This document shows positions 2,317-21,932 of a DNA stretch of 64,000 nucleotides, in pieces. This stretch comes from an uncultured Holophagae bacterium. GTDB lineage: Bacteria > Acidobacteriota > Thermoanaerobaculia > Thermoanaerobaculales > Sulfomarinibacteraceae. The notes under the pieces were generated by a model, which was not told where the DNA came from, searched no databases, and worked only from the letters and a program-made list of their open reading frames with translations. The position numbers were made by a program, and so were the translations under genes. The stretch lies in the NCBI GenBank assembly GCA_963710645.1, contig CAVQBD010000003.1, positions 176,450 through 240,449 of the forward strand. The letters run 5' to 3'. Numbering within the stretch: the stretch's first letter is position 1; each line of letters begins with the position of its first letter.

Positions 2317-2361
2317 AGGTTAGCTCTTAGACTGCGTCCTGGGAACTCGTAAAAATACGGG
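2317..2361 (-). promoter_or_regulatory. Regulon promoter 1 (23-bp box plus -10)
   Basis: Minus strand: CCCGTATTTTTACGAGTTCCCAG-16nt-TAACCT. Confidence 0.75.
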
Positions 2362-2435
2362 TTGCGGGCAGGATACAAACGCCGACGGCGGCTTGCGCCC
2401 CACCCCCTGGCGTCGGACCCTCCTCCAACTCCCGG

Positions 2436-3419
2436 TCACTCCAGGGCGACCGGGTCCCACTCCGGGTCCGGGTTGTAGCGTTCCATGGCGCGGAACTGAT
2501 CGAGCGTGGTCGGCCCGAGGTCCTGCTCGTAGACGACACCGTCGTGGCTGACGATGAAGGTCTTCACTCCGGTCTCGCCGTAGTCCACCGGAGCGGCGGC
2601 GAGCGCAAAGCCGCCGATCATGGCGCCCCCGACTACGAAGTCCATCTCGCCCAGCGGCGCGGCCGGTCCCTGGCCCTTGAGAACCTTGAAGTAGTAGCCG
2701 TGGAAGGGGCTGGGCTCCAGTTCGTATCCCTCGGCAATGACTCGAGCAATCACCTCGCCCACCGGCCCTTGCCAGGTCCCGTCCGGGGCCTGCCACGCCA
2801 ATCCATCCTGCGTGCCCGGTGTGCTGATGATGCGGTGCGCATACTGGTTCACCAGAGCGCCGTCGTGTTTGACCAGGGCGTACTCGTGCTGGGCCTCGAC
2901 GTACCCGAGGCACACGTCGATGGCATCGAACTCGTTTCTTCCGACGCGGCGGTAGAGCAGCTCCTCACGGCCCGCCTCGACGTCAAACCTCCAGCGCCCA
3001 CCATCCTCGACGATCGGTATGGGCGCCGGCCAGTCCTCGGCGCCCACGGAGAGGATGGCGACCGTCGGGTTGTCGGGATCTCGGACAATCTCAGTCTTGA
3101 CGCCGGCCTGGGCCGCAAAGGCCAGGCTCAGGTTGCGGTCGTGAACCGGGTCGCCGCTGACCACCAGGTCGACGCCGTCCGGCCCCAGGATTCGGGTCAG
3201 CGACGCGACGTCGAAGCTTTCGGATGCGTTGATGAAGGCTGCGGCCGCTTTTTCGGGTGTTTTGAACGTCTTCTGTTTGACTTCAGAACTCGCGGTGTCT
3301 GCCGCAGCCGGCAGCAGAACGGCTGCGACCGCGATCCCAAGGCAGAGGCCGAGACGAGCCACACGGAGCCGACGCTGGATGGAATTCTGATTGCCGTTTG
3401 ACGATTTCATCATGTTCAT
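2436..3419 (-). CDS. DUF2950 family protein
   Basis: F.TPE.AA.A, WPAPIPIV, GREELLYRRVGRNE, PFHGYYFKVL, YGETGVKTFIVSHDGVVY; overlaps the DUF3300 stop. Confidence 0.9.
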   Translation of the reverse strand: MNMMKSSNGNQNSIQRRLRVARLGLCLGIAVAAVLLPAAADTASSEVKQKTFKTPEKAAAAFINASESFDVASLTRILGPDGVDLVVSGDPVHDRNLSLAFAAQAGVKTEIVRDPDNPTVAILSVGAEDWPAPIPIVEDGGRWRFDVEAGREELLYRRVGRNEFDAIDVCLGYVEAQHEYALVKHDGALVNQYAHRIISTPGTQDGLAWQAPDGTWQGPVGEVIARVIAEGYELEPSPFHGYYFKVLKGQGPAAPLGEMDFVVGGAMIGGFALAAAPVDYGETGVKTFIVSHDGVVYEQDLGPTTLDQFRAMERYNPDPEWDPVALE

Positions 3420-4792
3420 CTCCGCCCCCCGCCGCCCCGTCCGCCGCCGCCCCGGGACCCCATGGACCCCATGCTGGAGGCGCCGCGCGAGCTCGCCGAC
3501 CGGGCGCTCGTTCCGCTGAATCCGCTCGAACTGCCCCCGAAGCCACCGGCGCTCGATCCGCTGCTCGACGGGATGCTGCGGCTGCCGATCTGGTCACTCC
3601 CGCCGCGGTTTGCCGCCGAACCGGCGGATCCGCGGCTGGCGGCGCTCGGCCCAGTGCTCGCCGACCGGTTGGAGGCCCCGGCGCTGCCTGCGGAACGGTC
3701 GGTGCCGCCCGCGCTGCCGGTCCGGGTGCCCGCTCCGCCCGCCGCGCTGTTGGAGACGCCGGCACTCCCGGTTTTGCTGCCAAAGCCACCTTGGAGTTGA
3801 GCGCTTGACTGGCCCGCGCTGGACTGGCGAGCGCTTGCCTGCCGGCTGCTCAAAGAGTCGCCGCGCGCCGATCCACCGTACTTGCTGGCGGTCGCCTTGT
3901 CCGCGTACGGAGTCCCGCCACGGTGTTGAGGGTTGTGCTCCCAGCTGCCGCCACCGCCCCGGTCGATGTTGGTGTTTCGATTGAAATTGTTGTCGATATT
4001 GATGTCGATGTCGCTGTGTCCCCAGCCACAGTGGCAACACGAACCACCCCAAACCGCTGCGCCCCACATCACTCCAAAGCTGAAGGTCACGAAGGCAGCG
4101 CCCGGCGTATAGGGAGGGTAATAAACGGGTGGATAGGGATAGACGGGCGGGGGGTAGACGTAGGTTGGGTTGTAGGACGGCACGTAGATCACCTCGGGAT
4201 CGGCGGATTCGACAATGATGACCGTTTTTTGCTCGACGACCTGGGTTTCGACCTTCTGCTGCTGATTGGACTCCAGCGCGCCTTTCTCCTGGGCCTTCTG
4301 CCGCATGCTCTGGACGGCATCCATGACGTCGCTCTGCTGGGCGAGAAATGCGTTGCCCAGCTCGGTGGTCCATTGGATGTCGTTGGCGAGCCGTTCGAGC
4401 GCCTCGGGGACCGCCGCCATGGATTGAATGCTCGGGTCCCACGGCTGCTCGGCGACCGCATCGGCCAACGCATCACCTTCGAGGTCGGGGTTCTTTGTGA
4501 GCCACTGCTGGAGCTGCATGATCTCCAGCGGGTAGGTCGAAGCGACAAGGACCTGGGCCAACAGCGCGTCGGGGTAGAGCGCGATGGGAGCCACCAACGA
4601 CTCCAGTTGTTCGGGCGGGATTCCGGCCGCGACCTCGTCGGCGGCCGCCGGGTCGGATTGCCGCGCCTGAACAAAACCCGCGCCGCCCATGTGGGCAATC
4701 ACGGCTGCAATCGCGATCACCGCGACAGCCCTTCGTCCCCGCCGGGTCGAATTGGTCGTTCCTACCATGCCTGCAAACCCCTTTCGCACCAC
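3416..4792 (-). CDS. DUF3300 domain protein with Gly/Ser/Arg-rich tail
   Basis: QLESLVAPIALYPDALLAQVLVASTYP, WDPSIQS, IYVPSYNP; low-complexity C-terminus. Start uncertain (4792 GTG or 4768 ATG). Confidence 0.9.
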   Translation of the reverse strand: MVRKGFAGMVGTTNSTRRGRRAVAVIAIAAVIAHMGGAGFVQARQSDPAAADEVAAGIPPEQLESLVAPIALYPDALLAQVLVASTYPLEIMQLQQWLTKNPDLEGDALADAVAEQPWDPSIQSMAAVPEALERLANDIQWTTELGNAFLAQQSDVMDAVQSMRQKAQEKGALESNQQQKVETQVVEQKTVIIVESADPEVIYVPSYNPTYVYPPPVYPYPPVYYPPYTPGAAFVTFSFGVMWGAAVWGGSCCHCGWGHSDIDINIDNNFNRNTNIDRGGGGSWEHNPQHRGGTPYADKATASKYGGSARGDSLSSRQASARQSSAGQSSAQLQGGFGSKTGSAGVSNSAAGGAGTRTGSAGGTDRSAGSAGASNRSASTGPSAASRGSAGSAANRGGSDQIGSRSIPSSSGSSAGGFGGSSSGFSGTSARSASSRGASSMGSMGSRGGGGRGGGGRR

Positions 4793-4822
4793 TTCCGCTC
4801 GATGTCTCCTGTCATTAGTAAC

Positions 4823-4867
4823 ACGGTAGCTGGCCGGCGGCTCCCTGGGAACTCGAAAAAATACGGG
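4823..4867 (-). promoter_or_regulatory. Regulon promoter 2
   Basis: Minus strand: CCCGTATTTTTTCGAGTTCCCAG-16nt-TACCGT. Confidence 0.75.
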
Positions 4868-4937: not shown

Positions 4938-4982
4938 CTCGTAGTTTTCCGGGGTGACAGCCTCGCAAAACCCGTCTAACGT
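4938..4982 (+). promoter_or_regulatory. Regulon promoter 3
   Basis: CTCGTAGTTTTCCGGGGTGACAG-16nt-TAACGT (-35-like GTGACA, 17-bp spacer). Confidence 0.75.
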
Positions 4983-5033: not shown

Positions 5034-5585
5034 ATGAAGAGAATCGCACTCTCCGCCGCTCTTGCCGGCATCATCGCCCTGCTCGCCCAGCCGGCCGTCG
5101 CGGCCGACAACGGCTTCTACCTCGGTGCGAGCGTCGGCCAGTCGGGCATCGAGATTTCCGACATCGACGACATGGACTTCTCGGGTGGGGACACGGCCTA
5201 CAAGTTGTTTGTCGGTTATCGCATCCTCACGTTCCTCGCCGTCGAAGGCAGCTACGTCGACTTCGGTGCTCCGGACGACAACCTCGGGGCCAACCTCGGG
5301 ACCGTCGAAGCCGATGTCAATGGATTCGACGCCTTCGCCATGGGCATGCTGCCCCTGGGCATCGCCGACATCTTCGTCAAGGCCGGCGTGATCGCTTGGG
5401 ATGCCGAGCTCGCCGCGCGGTCGATCGGCGAATCCGAGTCCGACAGCGGCACCGATCCCGCCTATGGCATCGGCGTCCAGTTCAGGATCAGATCCTTCGC
5501 GATCCGCGGCGAGGTCGAGTACTTCGACATCGATGGGGCCGAGTACGTCTACATGTACTCGGTGGGCGGCAGCTACACCTTCTAA
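5034..5585 (+). CDS. OmpA-like 8-stranded outer-membrane beta-barrel
   Basis: AGGAGG RBS; signal peptide; GFYLGASVG, YKLFVGYR, AVEGSYVDFG, C-terminal SYTF. Confidence 0.9.
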   Translation: MKRIALSAALAGIIALLAQPAVAADNGFYLGASVGQSGIEISDIDDMDFSGGDTAYKLFVGYRILTFLAVEGSYVDFGAPDDNLGANLGTVEADVNGFDAFAMGMLPLGIADIFVKAGVIAWDAELAARSIGESESDSGTDPAYGIGVQFRIRSFAIRGEVEYFDIDGAEYVYMYSVGGSYTF

Positions 5586-5966: not shown

Positions 5967-6416
5967 CTACGGCAGTTCTTCCAGATCCGCGAGGTCTTTC
6001 GCTCGAGCTGCAGCTTGCTTGTTGAGCTTGAGGTGGTGCAGGCCGATCAGCTTCACCGTGACCCCGTCGAGTTCGTCCTCGACCCGCTGCCGATACGCAT
6101 CATAAAACTCGACGCCGTCGATCGAGGTCATGATCTCGATGCGCATCGGTGGGAGGCCCATGCGAATGATCTGGTCGGCTGCGAGAAACATGGTCTCGCT
6201 CAGCTTCTGCCCACCAAAACCGAAATCTTCGAGTGCTGCCACGACTCGTCGAGCGTTCTCCGGCGTCGAAGCAATCCATACGTCGATATCCATGGTCGCT
6301 CTGGGATAGCCGTGATAGCCGACCGCATACCCGCCGACAAGGAGATACTCAACGTTGTGACGATGGAACCACTGAAAGAACTCTTTGAAGTCGGGTGGTA
6401 GATGGATCGTACCCAT
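5967..6416 (-). CDS. Minimal nucleotidyltransferase-fold protein
   Basis: LPPDFKEF, YLLVGGYAVGYHGYPRATMDIDVW, LKLNK.AAARAKDLADLE. Confidence 0.85.
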   Translation of the reverse strand: MGTIHLPPDFKEFFQWFHRHNVEYLLVGGYAVGYHGYPRATMDIDVWIASTPENARRVVAALEDFGFGGQKLSETMFLAADQIIRMGLPPMRIEIMTSIDGVEFYDAYRQRVEDELDGVTVKLIGLHHLKLNKQAAARAKDLADLEELP

Positions 6417-6561
6417 AGATAACCTGCCTCATCAACTCGAGGGCGGCGAGCCTGTCGGTGGCTGTTCGCGTCAGCCAATAGGCGTTTTCATTCGATTGGT
6501 CGTGAAGGCCTTCAACCACGACAACAGAGCGTTCGAACTTCGCCAATTCAACGAGATTCAT
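6349..6561 (-). CDS. Small partner protein of the nucleotidyltransferase (TA-like pair)
   Basis: 70 aa, YWLTRT..DRLAALELMRQ..YGYD....RLQRV; overlaps the MNT gene; TATGAT 6 nt upstream of the ATG. Confidence 0.7.
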   Translation of the reverse strand: MNLVELAKFERSVVVVEGLHDQSNENAYWLTRTATDRLAALELMRQVIYGYDPSTTRLQRVLSVVPSSQR

Positions 6562-6639
6562 GGCCCGATCATACAATATCGCGAGACTCTCGCTGCATTT
6601 CCTCCGGTAAACATTCCGCACTTCAGCGCAGGAAGACCT

Positions 6640-8439
6640 TCAGTTTCCTATGCGATGTGGCGACTGGCTCGCTTCACTTGGTACTTGGCGGAACGCCGCC
6701 GCGGCGTGGCGGTTGGTCGGGTAGAAACGGTTCTCGTCCATCAGCTCTATGAGCTCGTATTTCTCCAACCAGGTGCGGAAAGAACGGTCGGCGCGGCTGA
6801 CCGCAAAGACGATTTCGCGGTCGGCGAGCATAGTGATCGCCTGCCGCAGGACTTCTGCGCCGGTGGTGTCGACGTCGATCATCGCTTCCGCGTCCAGCAC
6901 GAACCAGCGGACAGGAGTGGCGGGGCTTGCGAGGATCTGCTCGATCTCGTCGAGAAAGAGGGTCGCGTTGGCGAAGTAGAGCGGGGCGCCGAAACGGTAG
7001 ATGACCAGACCCGAAGAGTTGGCATCGTCGCCCGCGCCCGCGGGAGTGAAATAGCTGCCGTCAGGGGCTTCCAGCAGCACCGATGTGTCCGGTTGGGACA
7101 CCCGCCGGATCACGTCGATGAGGGACAAAAGGAAGGCGATGGCGACGGCGCGCAGCGGGCCCAGGGCCAGCACGCTCACCAGGCAGACGGCGGCAATCCA
7201 GAAGTCCGAACGGCGCATCCGCCACAGCTCGCGGAGCTCGTGGACATCGATCAACGACAGTACCGCGTTGGCCACGATTCCGGCCAGGGCCGCATTGGGC
7301 AGGTACGCCAGCATGTCGGTGAAGAAGAGCATGACGACCGTGATCGTCCCGGCCGCCACCAGGCTGGGCAGCTGGCTCTTTGCGCCCGCGCCATCCATCG
7401 CCGCCGACCGGGAGGGGCTGTTGCCGGTGACCAACGAGCCGGTGAAGCCGGCGGCGAGGTTGGCCGCGCCCCAGGCGAACAGCATCTGATCGCCGTCCGC
7501 CTTGTAGCCGTATTTGCTGCTGTAGCTGCGGACCACGAGCAGACCTTCGCACATGAGGATAGCCACGATCGCCAGGGCGCTTGGCAGCAGCCGCAGGTAA
7601 TCGGCCGCAGGGATGGCGGGAACTGTCAACGCCGGGAGGCCCGAGGGAATCGCACCGAGTACACCGACCCCCTTGGCAGCGAGGTCGAAGACCGCGACGA
7701 TGACCGTCAGCAGTGTCAGGGCCACCAGCGCCCCGGGGATCTTTGGTGCGTACCGTTTCATCAGCCGGACGATCAGGAAGGCGCTGACCCCTATGGCCAC
7801 CGACCACAGATTGGCGCGAGGAATCGAGTCGAACAGGGCCACGAGTTCGAGGAAATAGCCCTCGGTGTTCACCGAGCTCGCCATGGCACCGTGGAGCTGT
7901 TCCGCCGCCGCCAGCACGCCCGACCCCGCGTCGGCCACGTGGGGCGCGGCGAGGATTTTCCGCACCTGGTTTGTGAACACCTCGATCCCGAGACCGGTGA
8001 TGAAGCCCACCATCACGGCATGGGACAGGAAGTTGGCGAGGAACGCCAGCCGGAAGAACCAGAAGACGAAGAAGACAAGCCCGCAGATTACGGCCAGGGC
8101 CAGGGCGTACTGCAGACGCTGCGGGTCTCCGGGGGCGGCAAAGGCGACGAGGGCGGCGCCAACCAGCCCGGCCATGGAGGCATCGGGGCTGGTCACCAGG
8201 TGACGCGAGCTGGTGAGCAGGGCGAAGACGACCAGCGGGATGATGGCCGCATAGAGACCGGCCACGGGCGGCAGACCGGCCACCTGGGCATAGCCGATGT
8301 TGAGCGGGATCATCAGGGCGGCCAGGGTGATGCCCGCCGAGACCTCGCGGGGGACGTCGGCCGGCGTGATCCCTCGCAGGCCGATGAACGGGCGTGGCCA
8401 GCTGATCTTGGCGAGCATGGAGGGATTCTCTTCACTCAT
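6640..8439 (-). CDS. sulP: SulP family anion transporter with STAS domain
   Basis: AGITLAALMIPLNIGYAQVAGLPPVAGLYA, GNSPSRS, YRFGAPLYFANA, LDAEAMIDVDTTG. Confidence 0.92.
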   Translation of the reverse strand: MSEENPSMLAKISWPRPFIGLRGITPADVPREVSAGITLAALMIPLNIGYAQVAGLPPVAGLYAAIIPLVVFALLTSSRHLVTSPDASMAGLVGAALVAFAAPGDPQRLQYALALAVICGLVFFVFWFFRLAFLANFLSHAVMVGFITGLGIEVFTNQVRKILAAPHVADAGSGVLAAAEQLHGAMASSVNTEGYFLELVALFDSIPRANLWSVAIGVSAFLIVRLMKRYAPKIPGALVALTLLTVIVAVFDLAAKGVGVLGAIPSGLPALTVPAIPAADYLRLLPSALAIVAILMCEGLLVVRSYSSKYGYKADGDQMLFAWGAANLAAGFTGSLVTGNSPSRSAAMDGAGAKSQLPSLVAAGTITVVMLFFTDMLAYLPNAALAGIVANAVLSLIDVHELRELWRMRRSDFWIAAVCLVSVLALGPLRAVAIAFLLSLIDVIRRVSQPDTSVLLEAPDGSYFTPAGAGDDANSSGLVIYRFGAPLYFANATLFLDEIEQILASPATPVRWFVLDAEAMIDVDTTGAEVLRQAITMLADREIVFAVSRADRSFRTWLEKYELIELMDENRFYPTNRHAAAAFRQVPSEASQSPHRIGN

Positions 8440-8908
8440 CGGCCGACTCCTCTTTCACGGGGTTTTCGGGATCGGGCTTCGTGTGGGCCGCCGACGTGTC
8501 GGCTCCCCCACCCCAACGACGGCGCAGAGAGTGCGCGACGCGCAAGATCGGGCCGCGAACCAGAAAGTACGGGACAATGGCGCACACCACGGCCACGATG
8601 AGCATCTGCCCAGGATGGAACGCCTTCAAAACCAGAAGCTGGTACGCCGTGTCGAGCACGCACGCGATGATGAAGACCCTCCCGAAGTCCTTGAGTCCCG
8701 AACGGAAGAGCCGTCGCCTCTCGGTCGGGCTCGTAACGAAGGCCCCAAAAAAGATTGGATTCCCTTCTTTGACGTCCCTCAGATGGGCCCTGATCGCGAG
8801 GATGGTGACCACGGTCGGCATGACCACCAGCCGGAAGTGCAACGGCCCATCCGCCCGGGCGATCAGCTGTGAAGCCGTGCGGGAGATCGATTCCAGGATG
8901 GCGTCCAT
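8432..8908 (-). CDS. Hypothetical membrane protein
   Basis: RADGPLHFRLVVMP and hydrophobic segments; overlaps the sulP start. Confidence 0.75.
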   Translation of the reverse strand: MDAILESISRTASQLIARADGPLHFRLVVMPTVVTILAIRAHLRDVKEGNPIFFGAFVTSPTERRRLFRSGLKDFGRVFIIACVLDTAYQLLVLKAFHPGQMLIVAVVCAIVPYFLVRGPILRVAHSLRRRWGGGADTSAAHTKPDPENPVKEESADE

Positions 8909-8971
8909 TTCTTACCCCCGCCTGCATCCGGATGGCCGCTGTCCCAATTGGCGTTCTGCGCGTCCCATACA

Positions 8972-10666
8972 TCAGACCGTTGCGTACATCGCCCGGGCCA
9001 GGGTGCCGCCGGAGAGGTTGCGGGCGTTGAATCCGTTCTGCAGGAGGATCCGGGTCGCGTAGTAGGCGCGCTGGGCGGAGCGGCAGATGATCAGGATCTC
9101 GCGGTCCTTCGGCAGCTCCCCGAGACGTGAGCGGAGCTGCGGCAGCGGTATGTTGACCGCTCCCGGCACCGACTCGACAACCAGTTCAACTGGCTGCCGC
9201 ACGTCGAGCAGGAAGGCGCCATCGAGGGCGTCCCAGTGAGAGATGGGCATGTCGCCGCCCAGCACGTCGGCGGCGACCATCCCGGCGTAGTTGACCGGGT
9301 CCTTGGCGCTGCCGAACTGGGGCGCGTAGCAGAGTTCGGCCTCCTCGAGGTCGTAGATGGTCGCGCCCATCTGAAGCGCCACGGCCAGCGCGCTGATCCG
9401 CTTGTCCACCGCCGGGCCGTCGTGTCCGAGCGCCTGCGCCCCGAGAAGACGGCCGTCGGACGTGCGGAAGATCACCTTCATACCGATCATCTTGGCGCCC
9501 GGGTAATAGCCGGCGTGGGAGTTCGGGAAGATGTAGATCTTCTGAAAGTCATCGTCGCCGAGTCGCTTCAGAGTTCTTTCGTTGACTCCCGTCCAGGCGG
9601 CGGCGCCGCCGAAGAGCCCGATAATCGCGGTGCCCTGAACGCCCCGGAAGCGGGAGTCCCTCCCGGCGATGACGTCGGCGGCAATCCGGCCCTGCCGGTT
9701 TGCCGGCCCGGCCAGCGCCATCAGGCTCCACTCGTCGGTGACGACGTCCTTGACCTCGATGACGTCACCGACCGCGAAGATGTCCGGATCGGAGGTGCGC
9801 ATCTGGTCGTCGACGCGGATCCCGCCGCGCTCGCCGATCTCCAGCCCGGCCGCCTTGGCCAAAGTCGTGTCCGGTCGCACGCCGATGGCGAGGATCACGA
9901 TGTCGGCCGGGTAGGTCTTCCCGGAAACCGTCGTGACTTCGATCGCACCGCCCTCCAGCTCGGCGAAGGCCGCCGCCCCGTCGTTGAGGACGACGTTGAC
10001 GCCGTTTTTCTTCACATGCTCCTCGACGAGCCGCGCCACTTCGTGGTCCAGCGGGCCCAGGAGCTGAGGCAGCTTCTGGAGAAGAGTCACTTCGAAGCCC
10101 AGGTGGACCAGGTTTTCCGCCGTCTCGAGGCCGATGAAGCCGCCGCCGATGACGACGGCGCGCGTCGTCGGCTTCACGTACTGGATCCCGGAGTATTTGG
10201 ACATCCCCGCCAGGAAGTCGGTGCCCCCCGCAACCCACTCTTTGATGGTGCGCGCGTCGGGCACGGTCCGCACGTGGAAGATTCCGGGCAGGTCGATGCC
10301 GGGCAGGGGTGGATGGACCGAGGCCGCCCCGGGAGACAGCACCAGCTTGTCGTATCTTTCGGTCGTCACCTCACCGGTCTCGACATTCTTCAGATCGACG
10401 GTCTTCTTCTTCGGGTCGACGTCAACCGCTTCGCAGTTGGTCCGCACGTCGATGCCGTAGAGGCCGCGGAAGACCTGCTCGTTGGCGACGAGGAGGCTCG
10501 ACTCCTGCTGGATGACTCCCCCAACGTGGTACGGCAGCCCGCAGTTGGCGTAACTGACGTAAGGTCCGCGCTCCACCATGAGGATCTCCGCCTTTTCGTC
10601 CAATCTGCGCAGACGCGCCGCACACGATGCCCCGCCGGCCACTCCACCCACGATGATGACTTTCAT
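8972..10666 (-). CDS. CoA-disulfide/persulfide reductase with C-terminal rhodanese domain
   Basis: GGVAGGASCAARLRR, SYANCGLPY, GGGFIGLE, CYAPQFGSAKDPVN, rhodanese CRSAQR. Confidence 0.92.
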   Translation of the reverse strand: MKVIIVGGVAGGASCAARLRRLDEKAEILMVERGPYVSYANCGLPYHVGGVIQQESSLLVANEQVFRGLYGIDVRTNCEAVDVDPKKKTVDLKNVETGEVTTERYDKLVLSPGAASVHPPLPGIDLPGIFHVRTVPDARTIKEWVAGGTDFLAGMSKYSGIQYVKPTTRAVVIGGGFIGLETAENLVHLGFEVTLLQKLPQLLGPLDHEVARLVEEHVKKNGVNVVLNDGAAAFAELEGGAIEVTTVSGKTYPADIVILAIGVRPDTTLAKAAGLEIGERGGIRVDDQMRTSDPDIFAVGDVIEVKDVVTDEWSLMALAGPANRQGRIAADVIAGRDSRFRGVQGTAIIGLFGGAAAWTGVNERTLKRLGDDDFQKIYIFPNSHAGYYPGAKMIGMKVIFRTSDGRLLGAQALGHDGPAVDKRISALAVALQMGATIYDLEEAELCYAPQFGSAKDPVNYAGMVAADVLGGDMPISHWDALDGAFLLDVRQPVELVVESVPGAVNIPLPQLRSRLGELPKDREILIICRSAQRAYYATRILLQNGFNARNLSGGTLARAMYATV

Positions 10667-10731
10667 ATTTCCTTGCCCTTTTTTTTAAGTGAACGGCCGG
10701 CAAATTTGCCAGCCCGACCATGTTGATCGAA

Positions 10732-11355
10732 CTACTGCGCTGGTTGAGCCGCTGCTTCCTCGAGGATGATCTTCTCGGGATCAAAGCCGTAGACCCAGGG
10801 CGCCGAGTTCTTCCAGCCGTTTTTCATCCTCTTTCCGACAAAGACGCTCCCGGGATCCTCCACCTTGTCGCCTTCCACTCCATCGACGATGGTGTAGGCG
10901 TTTGTGAACCCGGCCGCGGCAAGCATCTCGACGACCTTTGCACTGCGGTCACCTGACCGGCACGTAACCAGCAGGATGTCGTCCGGCTCGGCGATCCGTT
11001 TGACCTCGTCGACAAGGGCCGAATTCATATTCACGTTGTATTCGGTCTTGCCATCCTTTCGCTGATAGGTCACAAAGGCCATGGGGATGTTCCAGGCCAT
11101 CTCCGGGTGGCCGACGAACGCGTACTCCTCGGGGGTCCGCACGTCGATGACCGTCACCCTGTCCGGTGCGGCTTTCCACATCTCGTAGGCCTGGGCAGCG
11201 GTCACATAGAGACCGAGGGTGGTCTGCTTCCGTTCGGGAAGCTGCAAGTCCTCGGCCGTGGAACCGGGCTTGCCGTTTTCCCCTGAAAAAGAAATCGTAG
11301 TGGACCCACAGAGCACCGCGATCATCACGATGCAAAGAAGATATCGACGCGACAT
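10732..11355 (-). CDS. Exported rhodanese-like sulfurtransferase
   Basis: GAGGAGG then ATG at 11355; signal peptide; IDVRTPEEY.FVGH, CRSGDRS, DGVEG, GWKNS.PW. Confidence 0.88.
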   Translation of the reverse strand: MSRRYLLCIVMIAVLCGSTTISFSGENGKPGSTAEDLQLPERKQTTLGLYVTAAQAYEMWKAAPDRVTVIDVRTPEEYAFVGHPEMAWNIPMAFVTYQRKDGKTEYNVNMNSALVDEVKRIAEPDDILLVTCRSGDRSAKVVEMLAAAGFTNAYTIVDGVEGDKVEDPGSVFVGKRMKNGWKNSAPWVYGFDPEKIILEEAAAQPAQ

Positions 11356-11383
11356 CGTTCGCCTCCTCATGTTCTGCGCGACA

Positions 11384-11593
11384 TCACCGGGCGCCCACCT
11401 CCAGGAAGGCGCCGGCGGTTGTGCGCTGCGCCTTCTCGGCTTTCTTCGTTTCGTCGGTCTCAGCGTCTTTCTTCGTCGGCTTTCCGTTTGAATCAACTTT
11501 GTCCCGCACGTCGGTCGTCTCGATCTTGCACGCCGAGAGATCACCTGGTCCACAACACGTCGGTTTTCCCTGGTCGCTCTTATCCGTTGTCAT
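11384..11593 (-). CDS. Small Cys-containing peptide (69 aa)
   Basis: GGAGGA RBS; fills the gap between operon genes; CCGPGDLSAC motif. Confidence 0.6.
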   Translation of the reverse strand: MTTDKSDQGKPTCCGPGDLSACKIETTDVRDKVDSNGKPTKKDAETDETKKAEKAQRTTAGAFLEVGAR

Positions 11594-11678
11594 GACGGCG
11601 TTCCTCCATTTTTCGCTGCTGTCACCCTTCCGGCCCCCCCCCTGTGGGGGGCAAGAGGGGTGATCGAATTTTCTCGAG

Positions 11679-12842
11679 CTACCCGAGGCGCGTACCTTCC
11701 ACCTCGAGTCCGCCCCCCTGAGGAAGCTTGCTCCAGCTCCTTCTCTCCCACTCCTCCTTGAGAACTTCCATCGCCGCCTGCTCGAGAAACTCCGGGGCCG
11801 CCCACTCGTTCACATCGAAGTCGTTCTTGATGTAGCCGTGGCTGACCATGAAGTCCTTGCCGATGTTGATGCATTCCAGGTTCTGGGCACACAGGCTCGG
11901 CACCATGTCGACGTGCTTGATGCCCTCGTATGTATCCTCGGCATCCAGATAGAAGGTCTGCCGGTTGAGAATTTCACCGGCAGCGCGCTTGTTCCGATTC
12001 GCCCAACGTCCGACCTTGATCATCGCCTTCATGTAGGCGACCACCAGCTCGGGGTGCTCCTTGGCCATCACGTCGGTGCAGGTGATGACGGCGGGGGTAT
12101 TGGCGACCTGCAACGTCCAATCCGGCAACTTGGCCAGGTCCACGATCATCTTGAGCTTGCCCGTAGCCTCCTGCAGGTGTTGGAAAACCTTGCTCTGGGT
12201 GTAGATGGCGTCGACAGTGCCATTCAACACCGCGTTTTCCAGCGGACGGAACGCCAGATCGTGCTTGTGGTCGCGACGCATCCACAGCTCGGACGGGTTG
12301 TTCATCGGCGGGACCAGCATCTCGGGCTTGTCGTACCAGTCATCCGGGTACGGGAATTCCACGAGCTCGATATCGTCCATGGTCATGTCGTTGAGCATCA
12401 GGATGTTCTCGATGGCCATGTGTTCCTGGATGCGCCACCAGTCGTTCTTGATGGTGTTCAGGCTCTTCGAGATCCCGATCTTCTTGCCTTTCAGATCCTT
12501 CACGCGGAAGATCGGGTCGCGGGCACGCACAATCAACCCACCACCTTCGAATACCCAGGTCGCCCCGAGCAATACGGTTCGGCGGATGTCGGCGTGGACA
12601 TGGATTGGGGGATACAATCCGCCGAAGCGGATGAGGTTGTCCAGGTTGTGGATGTAGTGCGGGTACCAGTTGTTCTCGGGTGCGGCTCGGAAGTAGGCGT
12701 AGTCGACGCCGATCTTCTTGAACTCCTCGCGGCACCATCCCAGTTCCTGGTCAACGTTGTTTGCCGAGACCATGGGGCAGTTGGTGAACCACACCTCTTT
12801 CCAATTCAACGGCACTGTGGTGGAAACTCTCTCTGTGGCCAT
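11679..12842 (-). CDS. DszB-like desulfinase / SsuA-fold protein
   Basis: WFTNCP, PHYIH..IRFGG..PP, RTVLLG match the DszB Cys/His/Arg pattern; DLKGKKIG; no signal peptide. Confidence 0.78.
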   Translation of the reverse strand: MATERVSTTVPLNWKEVWFTNCPMVSANNVDQELGWCREEFKKIGVDYAYFRAAPENNWYPHYIHNLDNLIRFGGLYPPIHVHADIRRTVLLGATWVFEGGGLIVRARDPIFRVKDLKGKKIGISKSLNTIKNDWWRIQEHMAIENILMLNDMTMDDIELVEFPYPDDWYDKPEMLVPPMNNPSELWMRRDHKHDLAFRPLENAVLNGTVDAIYTQSKVFQHLQEATGKLKMIVDLAKLPDWTLQVANTPAVITCTDVMAKEHPELVVAYMKAMIKVGRWANRNKRAAGEILNRQTFYLDAEDTYEGIKHVDMVPSLCAQNLECINIGKDFMVSHGYIKNDFDVNEWAAPEFLEQAAMEVLKEEWERRSWSKLPQGGGLEVEGTRLG

Positions 12843-12952
12843 GATGACTTCCTTTCGTGTGAGGTCCCCGGATCCGCAACCGCAGGCGGATCCTGCCTCA
12901 TTGTTTTTTGCGTTTGTTGTTGTTCATTGAATTCCCCGGTTCATACGGTCGC

Positions 12953-13399
12953 TCATGACCGGACCGAGGGTGCCGGTGTTCTGGTGGGGGTCGTACTCCC
13001 TTCTTCCGTTGTGGTCTCTGCGCTTTGGACGCGGCGGACGGCATCGACCGCCGGCAGCAGATCGGTCGCGATCGCCCGCTTGAGAACAAAGGCGTCGGCG
13101 CCGGCTTCGATCGCGGCGCGGTACACGCTCTGCTCGTCGTGGACGCTGAGAACGATCACCTTGAGGCCGGGGCAACGCCGCCGGAGCTCCCGCAACCAGC
13201 CCAGCCCGCTGTCCCGGGCCAGGGAGAGGTCGACGATCGCCACCCCGGGCCGGAGCCGCGCCGCGCCCTCGAGCAATGACGCCTCGTCGGCGACCATCAC
13301 CACAGAGTCGAACGCCGTCTCGAGCAGCGCACGCACACCTTCCGTGAGGCCATGGTGACGGTCCGCCAGCAGGACACAGCTCAAAGGTCTATCAGACAT
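12953..13399 (-). CDS. Stand-alone response-regulator receiver (paralog 1)
   Basis: VLLADRH, AIVDLSL, VIVLSVH, GADAFVLK; no output domain; AAGGA RBS before ATG 13399. Confidence 0.88.
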   Translation of the reverse strand: MSDRPLSCVLLADRHHGLTEGVRALLETAFDSVVMVADEASLLEGAARLRPGVAIVDLSLARDSGLGWLRELRRRCPGLKVIVLSVHDEQSVYRAAIEAGADAFVLKRAIATDLLPAVDAVRRVQSAETTTEEGSTTPTRTPAPSVRS

Positions 13400-16131: not shown

Positions 16132-16142
16132 ACAGTCGGGGC

Positions 16143-17192
16143 TTACTCCTCCGTGTTGGGCCCGTACAGGCCGACACCGAGCTGACCCGCAATGAAATTG
16201 ATCGCTTTCATCGCCCGGATGCTGTTGCCGGCCTCGTTGAGGCGCGGCGAGAATGCCGCGATGGCGAACTTGCCCGGCACCACCGAGACGATGCCCCCGC
16301 CGACGCCCGTCTTCGAAGGCAGACCGGCGCTGTACATCCACTCGCCGGACTCGTCGTAGAAACCCGCGGTGGCCATGATGGCCAGCAGCTCGGGAACGTC
16401 CTCGGCCGGGATCATCCGGCGGCCGGTCAGAGGGTTGACCCCGCTGTTGGCCAGCGTCGCGCCCATCACCGCGAGGTCACGGGTGTTCACCCCGACAGAG
16501 CACTGCAGCGTATACACCCTCAACGCTTCCTCGGGTTCGCAGTACAGGCGCCCGTAGTTGTAGAGTATGTTGGCGATGCCGCGGTTGCCCCAACAGGTCT
16601 CGTACTCGGAGGTGTAGACCTCCTCGAGGAGCGGCAGCTCGTCGCCCGCAAACCCCTCCAAGTTGTCGTGCACCAGTTTCCACCGCTCTTCCTCGGAATC
16701 GGCCTGGACCATGCTGACGGCCGCGATGGCGCCGGCATTGACCAGCGGATTCACGGAACGAGCCGGGTAAATCTCCAGCGCCAGCTTCGAGTTGAAGGGC
16801 AGGCCCGTTGGCTCCACGCCGATCTTCTCGCGCAGCACCTTGGGCCCCTGCTGGCTCATGATCAATGCCGCGGTGAAGGGCTTGGACACGGACTGGATCG
16901 AGAAGCGGTACTCCTGCTCGCCCGCCGAGTAGATCTTGCCATCTCGGGTGGCGATGGCGACTCCGAACAACTCGCTGGGCACGGTATCGAGGATCGGAAT
17001 GTAATTGGCGTTGGCGCCGTCCTTCACATCCTTGAACTGGTTGTACGCCTCGTCCACAAGGCGCTGAAAATCCTCCGCAGTGGGCCCGGCCGCAGACTGC
17101 GCCGACATCGAATTCGGCAGCAGCACCATTCCCACCAGGGCCAGACCAAGCAACCATGTGCCGGTTTTACGAACAGAATTCATAGAGCTCAT
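16143..17192 (-). CDS. glsA: Glutaminase A with N-terminal signal peptide
   Basis: ANYIP.L, FSIQSVSKPF (catalytic SxxK), GVEPTGLPFNS, NPLVNAGAI, GLPSKTGVGGGI, SPRLNEAGNS. Confidence 0.95.
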   Translation of the reverse strand: MSSMNSVRKTGTWLLGLALVGMVLLPNSMSAQSAAGPTAEDFQRLVDEAYNQFKDVKDGANANYIPILDTVPSELFGVAIATRDGKIYSAGEQEYRFSIQSVSKPFTAALIMSQQGPKVLREKIGVEPTGLPFNSKLALEIYPARSVNPLVNAGAIAAVSMVQADSEEERWKLVHDNLEGFAGDELPLLEEVYTSEYETCWGNRGIANILYNYGRLYCEPEEALRVYTLQCSVGVNTRDLAVMGATLANSGVNPLTGRRMIPAEDVPELLAIMATAGFYDESGEWMYSAGLPSKTGVGGGIVSVVPGKFAIAAFSPRLNEAGNSIRAMKAINFIAGQLGVGLYGPNTEE

Positions 17193-18493
17193 GAGTTACC
17201 TCCAAAGGTGTGAGAGAAGTTGTACTTGAACGAGAACTGAATCTTGAAGTCGTCGACGGTCCAGCCGTCGGCGAAGTTCTCGCGGTTGCCATACTGCAGC
17301 TCGGCGCCGTACATGACGTTCGGCACCGGGGTATGCAGCAGGTTGACCAGGGCGTACTGCCCCTTGGAGAACGCGCTGGCGTCCTGGCTGCTCGCGTTGT
17401 CGATGTCGGTCAGCGAGAAGCCGATCGAGGTGGTCCACTCGCTGTTCCAGCTGTGGTCGAGGAAGGCCACCACGCCGAGGATCGGCAGAGCAACGCCCTT
17501 GATGGGCGCTGTGGGATTGCCCGGGTTGGGCTCGATGCCGATGTCGACGGTGGCGTCGTTGAAGTAGTTCTCGATCGCCTCGCCGTAGACCACCTGCAGC
17601 CTGAGAGTGTTCGAATCGCCGAGCTTGAGGTTTGAACTCAGGTTGATGCCCCAGCCAGTGACGCCGCCAGACAGATCGTACTCGTCGGTGCCGTTGTCCT
17701 CCCACTCGATGCGGCGCAGGATGCCTGCGACTTCAACGTACCCCCAGTCACCGGCGTGGCGGTACTCGGCCGACAGGTCGGGCAGAGGAAAGCGCGCCGA
17801 AACATCATCGAGGCCGGTATTTTCGTCGTATTGCCCCTGGTCGCCGCTCGCGCCCGGTCGTTCGAGCGCGACGGTGAGCCTGGTGTCGCCCTTGATGGGC
17901 ATCCACCGCACCTGGACGTTGCGGAAGAAGATCATACCGCTGGGTCCCCAGTACTCGAGCGAGTTGGGGAACACATCGATGTCCATGAACGGGCTCCAGG
18001 TCTGGCCGGCTCCGAAGTGGCCGAGTTCGCCGTATGCGTGACGCAGGCGAAAGGTGGTCTGGCCGGCGTCGTCACCCACCCCGAAGAGCTCGAACTCGAA
18101 GATGGTGTAGACCTCGCCGAGCTTTGTCGGGAAGTACGCCTTGGTGCCGAACCGGGTCTGCCGAACGCTGAAGTAGGTGTTGCCGTCGGTGCCGAATTCG
18201 TTCTCGTAGGCCGGCAGCTTGGTCGGCCGCATCACGTCGAACCAGTTGGGGTCGATCTGGCCGGTGCGGTAGCCAATGTCGGTCATGGCGAAGCCGTAGA
18301 TCTCCATCCGCGGCTTGAGCTGCTCCGCCTCTTCAGCATCGATGTCGTCGTTCGTCTCCGACTTCATTCCGGTCTCAGCCGTCAGCTCCTGCGGGTCGGC
18401 GGCGGCCACAGTGCATGGGGCCGCGAGCAGCAACAGGAGCGCGAGTGTCACGCCTCCGGCCGCCAACGGCCATTTGTGTTCATCGTTCCTCAT
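17189..18493 (-). CDS. DcaP-like outer-membrane porin
   Basis: EIYGFAMTD, FSVRQTRFG, FRLRHAYGE, GQTWSPFMD, RNVQVRW, IQFSFKYNF. Confidence 0.88.
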   Translation of the reverse strand: MRNDEHKWPLAAGGVTLALLLLLAAPCTVAAADPQELTAETGMKSETNDDIDAEEAEQLKPRMEIYGFAMTDIGYRTGQIDPNWFDVMRPTKLPAYENEFGTDGNTYFSVRQTRFGTKAYFPTKLGEVYTIFEFELFGVGDDAGQTTFRLRHAYGELGHFGAGQTWSPFMDIDVFPNSLEYWGPSGMIFFRNVQVRWMPIKGDTRLTVALERPGASGDQGQYDENTGLDDVSARFPLPDLSAEYRHAGDWGYVEVAGILRRIEWEDNGTDEYDLSGGVTGWGINLSSNLKLGDSNTLRLQVVYGEAIENYFNDATVDIGIEPNPGNPTAPIKGVALPILGVVAFLDHSWNSEWTTSIGFSLTDIDNASSQDASAFSKGQYALVNLLHTPVPNVMYGAELQYGNRENFADGWTVDDFKIQFSFKYNFSHTFGGNS

Positions 18494-18614
18494 GTGCGTT
18501 TCTCCTTTTCTCGATCCGATTCAGTGATTTGATTTTCCAATATCGATACGGTCGTTTGGGCGCTTGGTCGTGTTGTGGGGCTGCCACCCGCCCGGTCCTC
18601 ATATTCCCTTTCCA

Positions 18615-19772
18615 TCAATTCCTCGCCCCCGTTCCCGACGCCGGGGTCCACGGTGGCGCAACGTGGAGGTCGTTGGCGTGAGCCTGCTCCCACGCCCGCA
18701 CCTTGACCCGGGCCGCGTCGAAGAGTCTCTCGTAGTTGCCCTTGCGCACTTTGTAGCTTGCCTCCGGCGTCAGCAGAGCCCAGAGTGGCGCGTAGGCGTC
18801 GTAGACCGCGACCTGGGCCGCGGCCGAGCTCGGCGCCACGACATCGGTGCCGAAGAGGAAGCGGTCGGGGTAACGATTGATCATGTCGGCGGTGTGTTGG
18901 GTCGTCTCCGGTGTCGCCGTCACGTACTTGGCGACCTCGTCCCACGAGATGTCCATGTAGACGTGCGCCAGGGTGGGATCGGTGCAGATCTTCTCGACGA
19001 TCGCAGCCTGCTGCTCGAGTGGACGCACGACCCGGCCAACCCCGAGATGCGCCCAGATAATCGTGGTTTCAGGGTGGTGCGCGAAGAGTTCCTTCAACTG
19101 GGCGAGAATGTACGGCTCCTGGTCCGGCTTCGGGAACGGCATGTTGATGTCGTTGTGGAGGATGACCACCAGCCCGACTTCACCGGCGAAGTCGAAAATC
19201 CGGTCGAGCGCCGGATCGGTCAGGCTCGCCACCTCTCCGGCCACCTTCGCCGACACGAACTCCTTGTGGATGGTGAACTCACCGATCCCGGAGAACACCC
19301 CCGGAAAGGTCAGCAGCACCCGCCGAATGTGGTCGGCCGCGTACATGTCGGCGGGGTTGAAACCGGTGATCATGGGGTCGAAGCGTTCCTGCTGCTCCGG
19401 TGTCAGCGACTTGTATGCCATCGCAATGTGGGCGTCGGTGAACGAGTAGTAGTAGAGCGGCGCATCGGACTGCAGGTAATAGGTCGGCGCGAAGTCGCCG
19501 GTGTTGCCGTACGACCACATCTGCTGCAGCGGCAGGCCGAACACCGTAGAGCGGCCGATCGTCGTGCCCATCAACTCGACGTAGTCGTGGATGTCCGTGC
19601 CCTCCTGGATGTAGTTCGTGATGTGGAAGTGCGAGTCAAAAAACTCGGCGTCCGCCGGCACCTGCGCCGCGGCCGGCAGGCTCGAGAGCGTGGCGACGAG
19701 GACGAAGATGAGCCTGAGCGCCAGCCCAAAATGCCGGATGGTGATGTGTCCATCGTGATGATGCGTGTTCAT
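18615..19772 (-). CDS. Exported amidohydrolase-family protein
   Basis: Signal peptide; DSHFH, GIGEFTIHKE, ILHND, WAHLG, RFLFGTD. Confidence 0.88.
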   Translation of the reverse strand: MNTHHHDGHITIRHFGLALRLIFVLVATLSSLPAAAQVPADAEFFDSHFHITNYIQEGTDIHDYVELMGTTIGRSTVFGLPLQQMWSYGNTGDFAPTYYLQSDAPLYYYSFTDAHIAMAYKSLTPEQQERFDPMITGFNPADMYAADHIRRVLLTFPGVFSGIGEFTIHKEFVSAKVAGEVASLTDPALDRIFDFAGEVGLVVILHNDINMPFPKPDQEPYILAQLKELFAHHPETTIIWAHLGVGRVVRPLEQQAAIVEKICTDPTLAHVYMDISWDEVAKYVTATPETTQHTADMINRYPDRFLFGTDVVAPSSAAAQVAVYDAYAPLWALLTPEASYKVRKGNYERLFDAARVKVRAWEQAHANDLHVAPPWTPASGTGARN

Positions 19773-19802
19773 GTCTTCCTCTCTCCTTTCGTATGCAGTG
19801 CC

Positions 19803-21401
19803 TCAGAAGAAGATCGAAAATGCCGCCGACACCGTCGTGCCGTCCTGGCCGCCCGTGTAGTAGCCGAAAGTACTCGAGACCGGAGATCTGTTGACGTCGA
19901 TGACCTGGAGGTTGAGCCGGTGATTCCGCGTGTTGAAGGGGTACCAGTTCGTACCGATCAGGTACTCCGAGCTGTCGTCAAAGCCCGCGTCTTCGTCGCC
20001 GAAGATCTGCGAGGTCGCGGCGTAGAGTTCGAGTTTCTGTTTGATGGGGAAGAACGCCGCCTGGACATAAAAACCGGTGTCCACGATCTCGTCGACCGGC
20101 AAGGCGCCATCCGCCTGGAACCCGTTGAGCGTCCGGTGGTAGAACTCGGTCTGGAAGAAGAAACCCCGGTACTTCAGACCGGCATCGAACGCGAGGACCT
20201 GATAGTCCGCGTTGGTCACCGTGACACCCGGCGCCAGAGACCCCTCTGCGAACAGATTCAGACTGTCTGCGAGTTTCAGAGCGGTGTTCCCCGGGTTGGT
20301 GCCGATCGCCGTGTACCGCTCCTCGGGGCTCAGAACCGTCGACACACCGAAACGGGTCGCCAGATCCTCGTGATATTCCCAGTCGCCATAGCCGCCCCTG
20401 GGGCCGAACTCGTGGGTCGTCGGCATCCACCAGACCGAGCCGCCGTAGGTGAAGTGCCGGTCGATCTGGCTGGCGGTGACGCCCAGGGTGCTCGAGGTGT
20501 TTCCCATCGACGCGCTGTACCAGAGGCCCGGCAGGACCTCTCCATTCGCCCAAAGGCCCTGGGCAAAGAACGGCCGGAAGAACTCATCGGCCATGACGCG
20601 GTCGTTGCCGAGCCAGTAGGGGTGCGAGCCGAGCATCGACCTCGAGCCCGGGTTGCCGAAGATCCCGGCATAGAGGCTGAACTTCTTGTCGAACTGGTAG
20701 CCGATGTTGCCGAAGATGGCACTCTGGTTGGTTGTGTTGACGGTCCAAAACGCGATTGTGTAGCGTAGTTTCGGCGTCGCCATCCAGCCGTTCAGCCAGA
20801 CGAGGATCCGGTGAGAGTAGATGTCCCGCCGGGCGTCGACGGGATGCTGGTTGCCGAGGTGGTCGGTGAACATCTGGTCGGCGGGCATCTGGTTCATGTA
20901 CCGAAGCAGCGCGTAGGCGCTGATGGAGAGTTCCCCTGCTTCGCTTGTGCCGACGACGAACCCCTTGCCGGGATCGTACACACCCCAGGACTCGTTGGCC
21001 GGGGCCTCCGCGACACCGGCGTCAGGCGGCGGAGACGCGTCATGGCTCACCGCCGCGGTGTCCTCAGGAGTCGTTGCCGCAGTTTTCATGTCCGCGTCGG
21101 GCTCGAGCGGGGCGGCGGCCACCAGGAACTCGCCGCCGCAGCCCTCTGTGACCCACACACCTGTGCCGTCATAGCCCCAGGTTCTGCCCAGCAGGCAGGC
21201 CACCTCCCCCGTCTCTCGAACCAACAGGACGCCAGCCGACGTGTCGGCCGGGCAGTGTTGGCGCTCGTCGACCCCTGACGTGCAACTAACGGTCGCAATC
21301 GGGCCCGCGTTTCTTGTCGGCGCCTGCGCCAGGGCCATGGGCGCCAGACACAGGGCTCCAGTTGCTGACAAGAACATCACCCGGGTTCCGAAACTCATCA
21401 T
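19803..21401 (-). CDS. DUF3011 domain fused to an outer-membrane porin-like barrel
   Basis: Signal peptide; CTS..ERQHC...CLLGRTWGYD..GVWV..GCGGEF; barrel body with C-terminal FSIFF. Confidence 0.8.
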   Translation of the reverse strand: MMSFGTRVMFLSATGALCLAPMALAQAPTRNAGPIATVSCTSGVDERQHCPADTSAGVLLVRETGEVACLLGRTWGYDGTGVWVTEGCGGEFLVAAAPLEPDADMKTAATTPEDTAAVSHDASPPPDAGVAEAPANESWGVYDPGKGFVVGTSEAGELSISAYALLRYMNQMPADQMFTDHLGNQHPVDARRDIYSHRILVWLNGWMATPKLRYTIAFWTVNTTNQSAIFGNIGYQFDKKFSLYAGIFGNPGSRSMLGSHPYWLGNDRVMADEFFRPFFAQGLWANGEVLPGLWYSASMGNTSSTLGVTASQIDRHFTYGGSVWWMPTTHEFGPRGGYGDWEYHEDLATRFGVSTVLSPEERYTAIGTNPGNTALKLADSLNLFAEGSLAPGVTVTNADYQVLAFDAGLKYRGFFFQTEFYHRTLNGFQADGALPVDEIVDTGFYVQAAFFPIKQKLELYAATSQIFGDEDAGFDDSSEYLIGTNWYPFNTRNHRLNLQVIDVNRSPVSSTFGYYTGGQDGTTVSAAFSIFF

Positions 21402-21403
21402 CT

Positions 21404-21802
21404 CTAAACTCCTTCTTCGGCGTGTTTTGGGATGTGACGGACGGCATCGATGGACGGCAACAGATCGGTGCCGATCGCCCGCTTGAGCACGAAGGCATCG
21501 GCGCCGGCCTCCATCGCCGCGAGGCGCACGCTCTGTTCGTCGTGGACACTGAGGACGATCACCTTGAGGTCCGGACAGCGCTGCCGCAGCTCTCGCAACC
21601 AGCCCATGCCTTTGCCCGGAGCCAGCGACAGGTCGACGACCGCGACCTCGGGCCGAAGCCGAACCGCTCCTTCGAGGAGCGAGGTCTCGTCGGCGACCAT
21701 GACCACCGATCCAAAGGCCGTCTCGAGCAGGCCGCGGACGCCCTCCGTGAGACCGTGGTGGCGGTCCGCCAGCAGAGCGCAGCTCAGGGGGTTCTCTGAC
21801 AT
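21404..21802 (-). CDS. Stand-alone response-regulator receiver (paralog 2)
   Basis: Close paralog of 12953-13399; receiver domain only. Confidence 0.88.
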   Translation of the reverse strand: MSENPLSCALLADRHHGLTEGVRGLLETAFGSVVMVADETSLLEGAVRLRPEVAVVDLSLAPGKGMGWLRELRQRCPDLKVIVLSVHDEQSVRLAAMEAGADAFVLKRAIGTDLLPSIDAVRHIPKHAEEGV

Positions 21803-21864
21803 TGAGACCTTCTCTCCGCGACAGTGCTCTTCGCGTTGTCTGCCTGAAAATCGGCATTAAACGG

Positions 21865-21932
21865 ACGTTAGCCGAGAATCGAAGGGCTGTGACCTCGGGA
21901 TCTTACGGGCCGTGACCTCGCAAATTTACGGG
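21865..21932 (-). promoter_or_regulatory. Regulon promoter 7 with two tandem boxes
   Basis: Minus strand: CCCGTAAATTTGCGAGGTCACGG then CCCGTAAGATCCCGAGGTCACAG-16nt-TAACGT (23-nt period). Confidence 0.8.

Follow-up and report, generated by a model that had tools for sequence, protein, structure and literature searches.

Several described two-component systems pair a kinase carrying HisKA_3 and HATPase_c domains with a response regulator made of a receiver and a GerE domain, among them NarX/NarL, VraSR, EvgSA, DesKR and FixLJ. The NarL site is a 7-2-7 heptamer pair. In mycobacteria, DosS/DosT-DosR (DevSR) likewise combines a GAF-bearing cytoplasmic HisKA_3 kinase and a NarL-type regulator with a dedicated regulon and one conserved box, the DosR box being a 20-bp palindrome. 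Class II promoters of the CRP/FNR type have activator sites that centre at -41.5. Here we describe a kinase-regulator pair of these families, and a 45-bp promoter element in front of seven transcription units beside it, in a 64,000-nucleotide (nt) stretch of DNA (the window) from an uncultured Holophagae bacterium (GCA_963710645.1, contig CAVQBD010000003.1, positions 176,450 to 240,449). The genome (G000) is 4.9 Mb in 9 contigs and the window lies on its 432-kb contig C3. The pair is a previously undescribed NarL-family two-component system with an unusually clean, local and apparently mobile regulon. The two genes, which overlap by 4 nt and lie directly upstream of the promoter called P7 below, are the following (domains by Pfam).

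22611..24647 (-): sensor histidine kinase; GAF, two PAS_3, HisKA_3 (6.3e-8), HATPase_c (1.3e-13)
21961..22614 (-): NarL/FixJ-type response regulator; Response_reg (2.3e-26), GerE (8e-17, residues 154-209)

The regulator carries the features of the NarL/FixJ family: its receiver aligns with DD, D, T and K at the expected places, it has a GerE/LuxR helix-turn-helix and its neighbour is a HisKA_3 kinase. The best solved relatives are VraR, EvgA, NarL and DesR (E 4e-30 to 3e-23), with DevR at E 2.6e-18. Regulator and kinase missed every cut-off of the NCBIfam equivalogs NarL, FixJ, EvgA, UvrY/GacA, MctR and UhpA. The best scores were 155 against a cut-off of 242 (PRK15369) and 154 against 300 (MctR), with NarL at 110 against 250 and FixJ at 103 against 255; as all of these are far below the cut-offs, the pair is none of the named systems. 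A Pfam search of the kinase gave no transmembrane or periplasmic domain, and a sequence search of the PDB with its sensor part returned generic PAS matches only. Cys66 and His91 of the GAF region are conserved and do not identify a ligand. A search of the literature found nothing on this two-component system, motif or gene combination.

The pair differs from NarX/NarL-type systems in its cytoplasmic GAF-PAS-PAS sensor and in its site, an asymmetric 23-bp box unlike the heptamer pair. It differs from DosS/DosR-type systems in that the kinase has one GAF and two PAS_3 domains and not tandem GAF domains, in that the box consensus CCCGTAgTtTcCCGAGgTCACAg is not self-complementary and so is no 20-bp palindrome, and in the content of the regulon, whose main target is a single-domain receiver. 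Given the assumed start, the promoters would resemble those of CRP/FNR class II in a site centre at -41.5 over a weak -35, whereas the activator family is a different one and the site is an apparent direct repeat flanked on both sides by weaker 23-bp units. With regard to cargo, CstR-type reactive-sulfur regulons with a coenzyme A (CoA) persulfide reductase have been described, as for CoAPR of Enterococcus faecalis (PMC9405070). The core cargo here appears to share their domain composition, with a pyridine-nucleotide-disulfide reductase-rhodanese fusion together with free rhodaneses, but it is placed with a two-component system and not with a one-component persulfide-sensing repressor, and enzyme function here is read from domains.

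The 45-bp element and its confinement to one island

An earlier note on this DNA had described eight 23-bp boxes, seven of them set at a fixed distance from a -10 hexamer. All eight were recovered at the same coordinates and on the same strands. The seven promoters and the units that they are taken to drive are listed here.

P1, 2317..2361 (-): box 2339-2361, -10 2317-2322; 28.2 bits; exported outer-membrane-like protein 1447-2190
P2, 4823..4867 (-): box 4845-4867, -10 4823-4828; 28.1 bits; DUF3300 and DUF2950
P3, 4938..4982 (+): box 4938-4960, -10 4977-4982; 34.5 bits; OmpA-like beta-barrel gene 5034-5585
P4, 13464..13508 (-): box 13486-13508, -10 13464-13469; 33.2 bits; REC1/sulfur operon
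P5, 13629..13673 (+): box 13629-13651, -10 13668-13673; 39.2 bits; DUF2490 outer-membrane gene
P6, 15235..15279 (-): box 15257-15279, -10 15235-15240; 42.8 bits; DUF1344-like lipoprotein gene 14536-15138
P7, 21865..21932 (-): extra box 21910-21932, main box 21887-21909, -10 21865-21870; 53.0 bits; REC2 operon

After each of the seven boxes come 15 nt, then a C, then TAnnnT, which therefore begins exactly 16 nt past the box; the hexamers are, as had been reported, TAACCT, TACCGT, TAACGT, TAGGCT, TATGGT, TAATCT and TAACGT. Every box is directed at a gene on its own strand, the tandem extra copy at 21910-21932 (-) abuts the box at 21887-21909, and the 3' end of the box does hold a weak -35 (GTCACA or TTCCCA) 17 bp from the -10. 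P7, which begins 29 nt past the stop codon of the regulator gene, is the highest-scoring site of the genome. The box promoters escape a generic sigma-70 consensus scan, as is expected if they are weak and activator-dependent. A search of window positions 1-26000 against Rfam gave no match at gathering score.

The sites are confined to this island. When up to three mismatches were allowed the consensus matched the window 15 times against 6.13 expected, a number reached in 1 of 100 shuffles. The eight matches with no or one mismatch are exactly the eight boxes of the earlier note, and its statement that there are no copies beyond 22 kb stands for the window and holds genome-wide. Throughout the genome all five perfect matches lie inside the island, as do three of six with one mismatch; the remaining three have no TAnnnT where it should stand. 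Trained on 92 sites, all from other genomes, a 45-nt weight matrix gave seven matches of 12 bits or more on both strands of the whole genome, and these are the seven promoters, each at 28 bits or more. Among the box matches with two mismatches there are seven identical copies of a stretch of at least 58 nt (C2:297188, C3:3684, C3:67428, C6:205013, C6:299291, C9:638972 and C9:939498 of G000), probably an insertion sequence or a dispersed repeat of the genome that has no connection with the regulon.

An exact scan for the box, N15 and CTAnnnT across 185,579 species genomes returned 76 loci from 52 assemblies, all of them metagenome-assembled genomes; about ten loci would be expected by chance (our own arithmetic, with equal base frequencies), and at most 8 kb was fetched per locus. 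The consensus over the 92 foreign sites is C-CCCGTA-g-T-t/a-T-c-C-CGAGgTCACAg, N15, CTA-n-n-C-T. Positions that the scan left free are also conserved: the C before the box in 80/92, T8 in 76/92, T10, C12 and C19 in 82/92 each, A20 in 84/92 and a C at the fifth position of the -10 in 79/92, while the sequence flanking the element is not conserved among loci. Of 121 box matches, 103 are followed by CTAnnnT and 13 more by nTAnnnT at the same place, and the five exceptions include two tandem upstream copies. TAnnnT stands exactly 16 nt past the box in 25 of the 29 box matches that fall outside the scan pattern, which means that the fixed geometry is independent of how the sites were found.

Box positions 1-10 (CCCGTAgTtT) and 11-20 (CCCGAGgTCA) form a direct repeat with a period of 10 bp. 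With the transcription start taken as 7 nt after the -10, an assumption that applies to all promoter numbering here, the box extends from -51 to -29 and the two half-sites from -51 to -32, centred at -41.5. The suggestion that this is class II activator geometry thus fits in position, given the assumed start. As to the type of site, the box is no NarL-style inverted repeat: it resembles two direct 10-bp half-sites (CCCGnnGTnn) within a 23-bp tandem periodicity. Column autocorrelation over 130 nt gave a sole positive peak at a lag of 23 (+3.85; the next values were -12.8 and -14.0). Its source is a degenerate unit upstream of the box (cc.cg...tttccc) and another downstream (ccctccg.atcccg.CTA); the periodicity is seen most clearly in the tandem copy at P7.

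Co-occurrence with the kinase and regulator

The earlier note had tied the regulon to the adjacent kinase and NarL-type regulator, and co-occurrence of the motif with orthologs of the pair gives this strong backing: 45 of the 52 motif-bearing assemblies have an ortholog, usually no more than a few kb away. A regulator or kinase ortholog (identity of at least 70% and at least 49%, respectively) lies inside 40 of the 76 motif loci, which represent 37 assemblies. Regulator orthologs of 75-99% identity are present in 35 of the loci, and kinase orthologs of 55-99% identity adjoin boxes in other genomes. When the other 15 assemblies were searched whole, eight had a long kinase ortholog elsewhere (57-71% identity). 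By label, 18 of the assemblies are Thermoleophilia, 18 acidobacterial, five Actinomycetota/Actinomycetes/Ilumatobacteraceae, six Propionivibrio/Rhodocyclaceae/Burkholderiales/beta-proteobacterium and two delta-proteobacterium, with one each from Chloroflexia, Planctomycetota and Armatimonadetes.

The association is also seen at closer range. Among 41 genomes of the same order the kinase ortholog (66-99% identity) occurs in seven (G000, G001, G003, G004, G007, G012 and G023), and in all seven there are sites with box and -10 beside it, each fetched region holding 1 to 8. Nine isolated one-mismatch boxes lie away from the kinase-regulator locus, seven in relatives without a kinase ortholog and two elsewhere in genomes that have one; none of the nine has a -10 or the A/T-rich centre. 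In a scan of the phylum at two mismatches a reversed control pattern gave about as many matches, so two-mismatch matches were treated as noise and only those with at most one mismatch or with the conserved spacer were kept. Four genomes in a sample of 400 others of the phylum contain plausible matches (three with 0-1 mismatch, one with 2), and in each of the four the kinase ortholog is 1-3 kb away. Five further genomes have 2 to 6 sites each at no more than one mismatch, always grouped on a single contig over 3-40 kb, against 0 for the control. The regulon is local in every genome examined.

The arrangement of these loci is repeated as well. By our own count from the locus map, 27 of the 35 regulator-bearing loci have a box within about 130 nt past the regulator stop codon and co-directional with that gene; 16 loci have a box that faces away from the kinase gene on its upstream side, and none has a box pointing into the kinase gene. 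The regulator is the sole DNA-binding protein of the conserved module. Clustering of six-frame open reading frames (ORFs) from the 76 loci revealed no other DNA-binding family or sigma factor that recurs; as alternative-frame ORFs blur such clusters in GC-rich DNA, they were used only to look for a recurring sigma factor or second DNA-binding family.

The regulator is more conserved than RpoB over the distances concerned. The C-terminal half of RpoB is 73%, 54-67%, 60-72% and 59-67% identical to that of the genomes reached through loci L116, L045, L066 and L065, respectively, whereas the regulator is 82%, 77%, 84% and 80% identical. This difference suggests that the kinase-regulator module has been transferred horizontally, although very strong constraint on the regulator may also account for it. 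When plasmids were searched with the kinase protein, the outcome was a single partial match of 46% (a Rhizobium plasmid), which is no evidence of carriage on plasmids. The island does not stand out in composition and contains no tRNA gene. A metatranscriptome contig (run X20) joins position 15288 to 21963 with 38 other letters between, placing the 3' end of the regulator gene next to the P6 region; in some relative the DUF1344-like gene seems to follow the regulator directly, and the boxes may be points of recombination. The only RNA run used here consists of such assembled metatranscriptome contigs, which carry no information on starts, and near-identical pieces cover 19526-21003 only.

A proposed mechanism and its rivals

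We consider it probable that the adjacent two-component system has its cognate promoter in the 45-bp element, with the regulator as the box-binding protein, and very likely that the 45-base design marks the full set of the regulator's targets. The cytoplasmic GAF-PAS-PAS kinase would phosphorylate the NarL-type regulator, which would then bind both direct 10-bp half-sites of the 23-bp box, CCCGTAnTTT and CCCGAGGTCA. Bound at about -41.5, over a weak -35 (GTCACA or TTCCCA) 17 bp from the TAnnnT -10, it would recruit the housekeeping RNA polymerase in a class II manner. The seven units beside the system would thereby be switched on, providing two receivers, a cytoplasmic sulfur/CoA-persulfide set and lineage-specific exported and outer-membrane proteins; the induced receivers would most likely feed back, acting as a phosphate sink for the kinase or as a partner of the regulator. 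The two-component genes, the box and the core genes would move jointly between distant lineages as a self-contained local regulon. Activation appears more likely than repression because of the weak -35 and the base-exact spacing. The signal can only be guessed at, with low confidence, as a cytoplasmic redox or reactive-sulfur cue.

A number of observations weigh against this reading. The box is asymmetric, unlike the inverted repeats that NarL-family dimers usually bind. The invariant C at -13 and the C at the fifth -10 position, conserved as given above, are not explained by the housekeeping sigma factor alone, and RpoS was considered for the C at -13 and rejected, as the genome has no RpoS above cut-off and lineages that lack RpoS have the element too. 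Related loci do not count as independent samples. The seven assemblies of the 52 without a clear kinase ortholog may reflect incompleteness, a diverged kinase or a chance match, which are indistinguishable in metagenome-assembled genomes. Finally, phylum labels need care: L055 and L066 are near-identical in box sequences and protein identities, yet one is labelled Thermoleophilia and the other Chloroflexia, so that one label or bin is probably wrong.

A site over the -35 would equally suit a repressor, and the regulator could act as one if the box holds a real -35 and its occupancy blocks RNA polymerase until the signal arrives. The degenerate third 23-bp unit, which covers the -10, would add to such occlusion. 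We think this unlikely: the -35-like hexamers are poor, the generic sigma-70 scan fails on these promoters and spacing that is invariant to a single base suits a stereospecific contact better than occlusion. Most kinase-paired regulators of the NarL family are, moreover, activators. An alternative sigma factor that reads the element as its promoter, with the two-component system simply lying nearby, would account for a CTAnnCT more conserved than a housekeeping -10 requires, and G000 has 21 sigma-70-family genes. None of the 21 is on the window's 432-kb contig, though, and there is no RpoS above the family cut-off. A sigma-like gene is found in only 1 of the 76 motif loci, and the element stays constant where RpoB is 54-73% identical, its co-travellers being the kinase and regulator and not a sigma factor. 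This explanation is accordingly rated very unlikely. The genome does encode a second primary-like sigma factor (C7:238094-238933, a 376-amino-acid frame), which scores 201.6 bits with the RpoS model against a cut-off of 378.7.

Synteny alone cannot prove which protein binds the box, and an unlinked transcription factor could do so, adjacency then reflecting co-inheritance of one island. Five of the 52 assemblies have no kinase ortholog at E <=1e-80 and two more have only an N-terminal match of 46-48%, as this would allow. Against it, the kinase-regulator pair is the constant neighbour even though boxes precede many non-homologous genes, and no other DNA-binding family recurs in the loci; we hold it to be highly improbable. 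The idea that the box has no part in regulation, being a dispersed repeat or a scar of recombination, can draw on the metatranscriptome contig described above, since each end of the 15288 to 21963 junction borders a box. It is scarcely credible, since every box is intergenic, has the orientation of its gene and keeps a fixed distance to the -10, and since the genome has only seven, all in one island and without an Rfam match.

The observations can be joined, tentatively, in a broader picture in which kinase, regulator, 45-bp promoter and receiver/sulfur core form a horizontally mobile, self-contained cassette. The promoter would work across phyla because the regulator supplies -35 recognition, binding as an oligomer over three tandem 23-bp units (about -74 to -6), and recipients would wire in genes of their own by acquiring the 45-bp element. 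The genes wired in could, on this still speculative account, be porins and the glutaminase here, and an amino-acid decarboxylase, PPK2 and cardiolipin synthase elsewhere.

What emerges is a complete and sharply bounded regulon for an uncharacterised two-component family that is widespread in uncultured genomes labelled as Thermoleophilia, Acidobacteriota and Rhodocyclaceae. It gives DUF3300, DUF2950, DUF3011, DUF2490, DUF2254, DUF3141 and a cytoplasmic NMT1-like protein one testable regulatory context, and the nearly invariant promoter could predict the targets of the system in any genome. As the regulator is more conserved than RpoB between labelled groups and the regulon is always local, the system also offers a clean case for studying the joint spread of a regulator and its promoters.

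Putative target genes and operons of the island

Across genomes, 114 sites have a downstream ORF, and of these 53 precede a single-domain receiver and 13 a rhodanese or a CoA-disulfide-reductase (CoADR)-rhodanese. The other downstream genes encode DUF2254, enoyl-CoA hydratase, an HlyD-type protein, PPK2, a cardiolipin-synthase-like PLD protein, Orn/Lys/Arg decarboxylase, DUF3141, DUF3313, an AI-2E transporter and a glycoside hydrolase. The conserved core consists of the receiver, the NMT1-like binding protein, the rhodanese and the CoADR-rhodanese, and the P4-type gene set is found downstream of boxes in loci labelled as other phyla also. Of the regulon content proposed earlier, the porins, DUF3300/DUF2950 and the glutaminase are lineage-specific additions, occurring in acidobacterial loci only, and amidohydrolase targets are likewise restricted to acidobacterial loci. 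The genes of the three multi-gene units in the window, all on the minus strand, are as follows.

P2 unit (-; Pfam): DUF3300 3416-4792 or 4768; DUF2950 2436-3419
P4 operon, 6640..13399 (-; Pfam, NCBIfam)
12953-13399 (-): REC1, single-domain receiver, 148 amino acids
11679-12842 (-): cytoplasmic NMT1/SsuA-like binding protein
10732-11553 (-): rhodanese
8972-10666 (-): CoA-disulfide-reductase-rhodanese fusion, function assigned from domains
6640-8439 (-): SulP/STAS permease, probable end of the operon
P7 operon, 16143..21802 (-; Pfam, signal-peptide-like N-termini, terminator scan)
21404-21802 (-): REC2, single-domain receiver
within the operon (-): exported DUF3011 protein with a signal-peptide-like N-terminus
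18615-19772 (-): Amidohydro_2
17189-18493 (-): DcaP-type porin
16143-17192 (-): exported glutaminase
16133-16112 (-): terminator-like hairpin after the operon

The sulfur operon probably continues into the SulP/STAS permease at 6640-8439 (-). The LOR gene lies behind a terminator-like site and probably does not belong to the regulon. Two ORFs were discarded as alternative-frame artefacts, 6385-8601 (+) and the first third of 19803-21857 (-), the real genes being the permease (6640-8439) and the receiver at 21404-21802. Leaderless receiver genes were likewise rejected: the ATGs 7 nt past the -10 (13456 and 21857) open alternative or over-long frames, and the receiver starts that carry a ribosome-binding site are at 13399 and 21802.

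Both receivers align over their full length with the receiver domain of the regulator itself and keep the phospho-acceptor Asp, the Ser/Thr and the Lys, with D-R in place of the D-D of the regulator. The leaders of receiver genes in loci L044-L119 carry a motif, ..CTCGA.GCCGGGTGCCGACAGG.., 20-45 nt past the -10 of the receiver promoters and across phylum labels; the two receiver leaders of the window differ. No signal peptide was found in the NMT1/SsuA-like protein (11679-12842), which is 86-88% identical to copies in several Thermoleophilia-labelled loci and, judged by these sequences, is an unusually conserved cytoplasmic protein. A look-up in the ESM Atlas returned nothing for it beyond 'substrate-binding protein'. 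The DUF2490 gene downstream of P5 is split over two frames, with the signal peptide in 13755-14084 and the domain in 13849-14436, and has a low third-position GC of 0.59-0.67; it may represent a frameshift, a pseudogene or an assembly error. Outside the regulon, at 28026-30773 (+), the window encodes a Ser/Thr protein kinase fused to PD40/WD40-like beta-propeller repeats.

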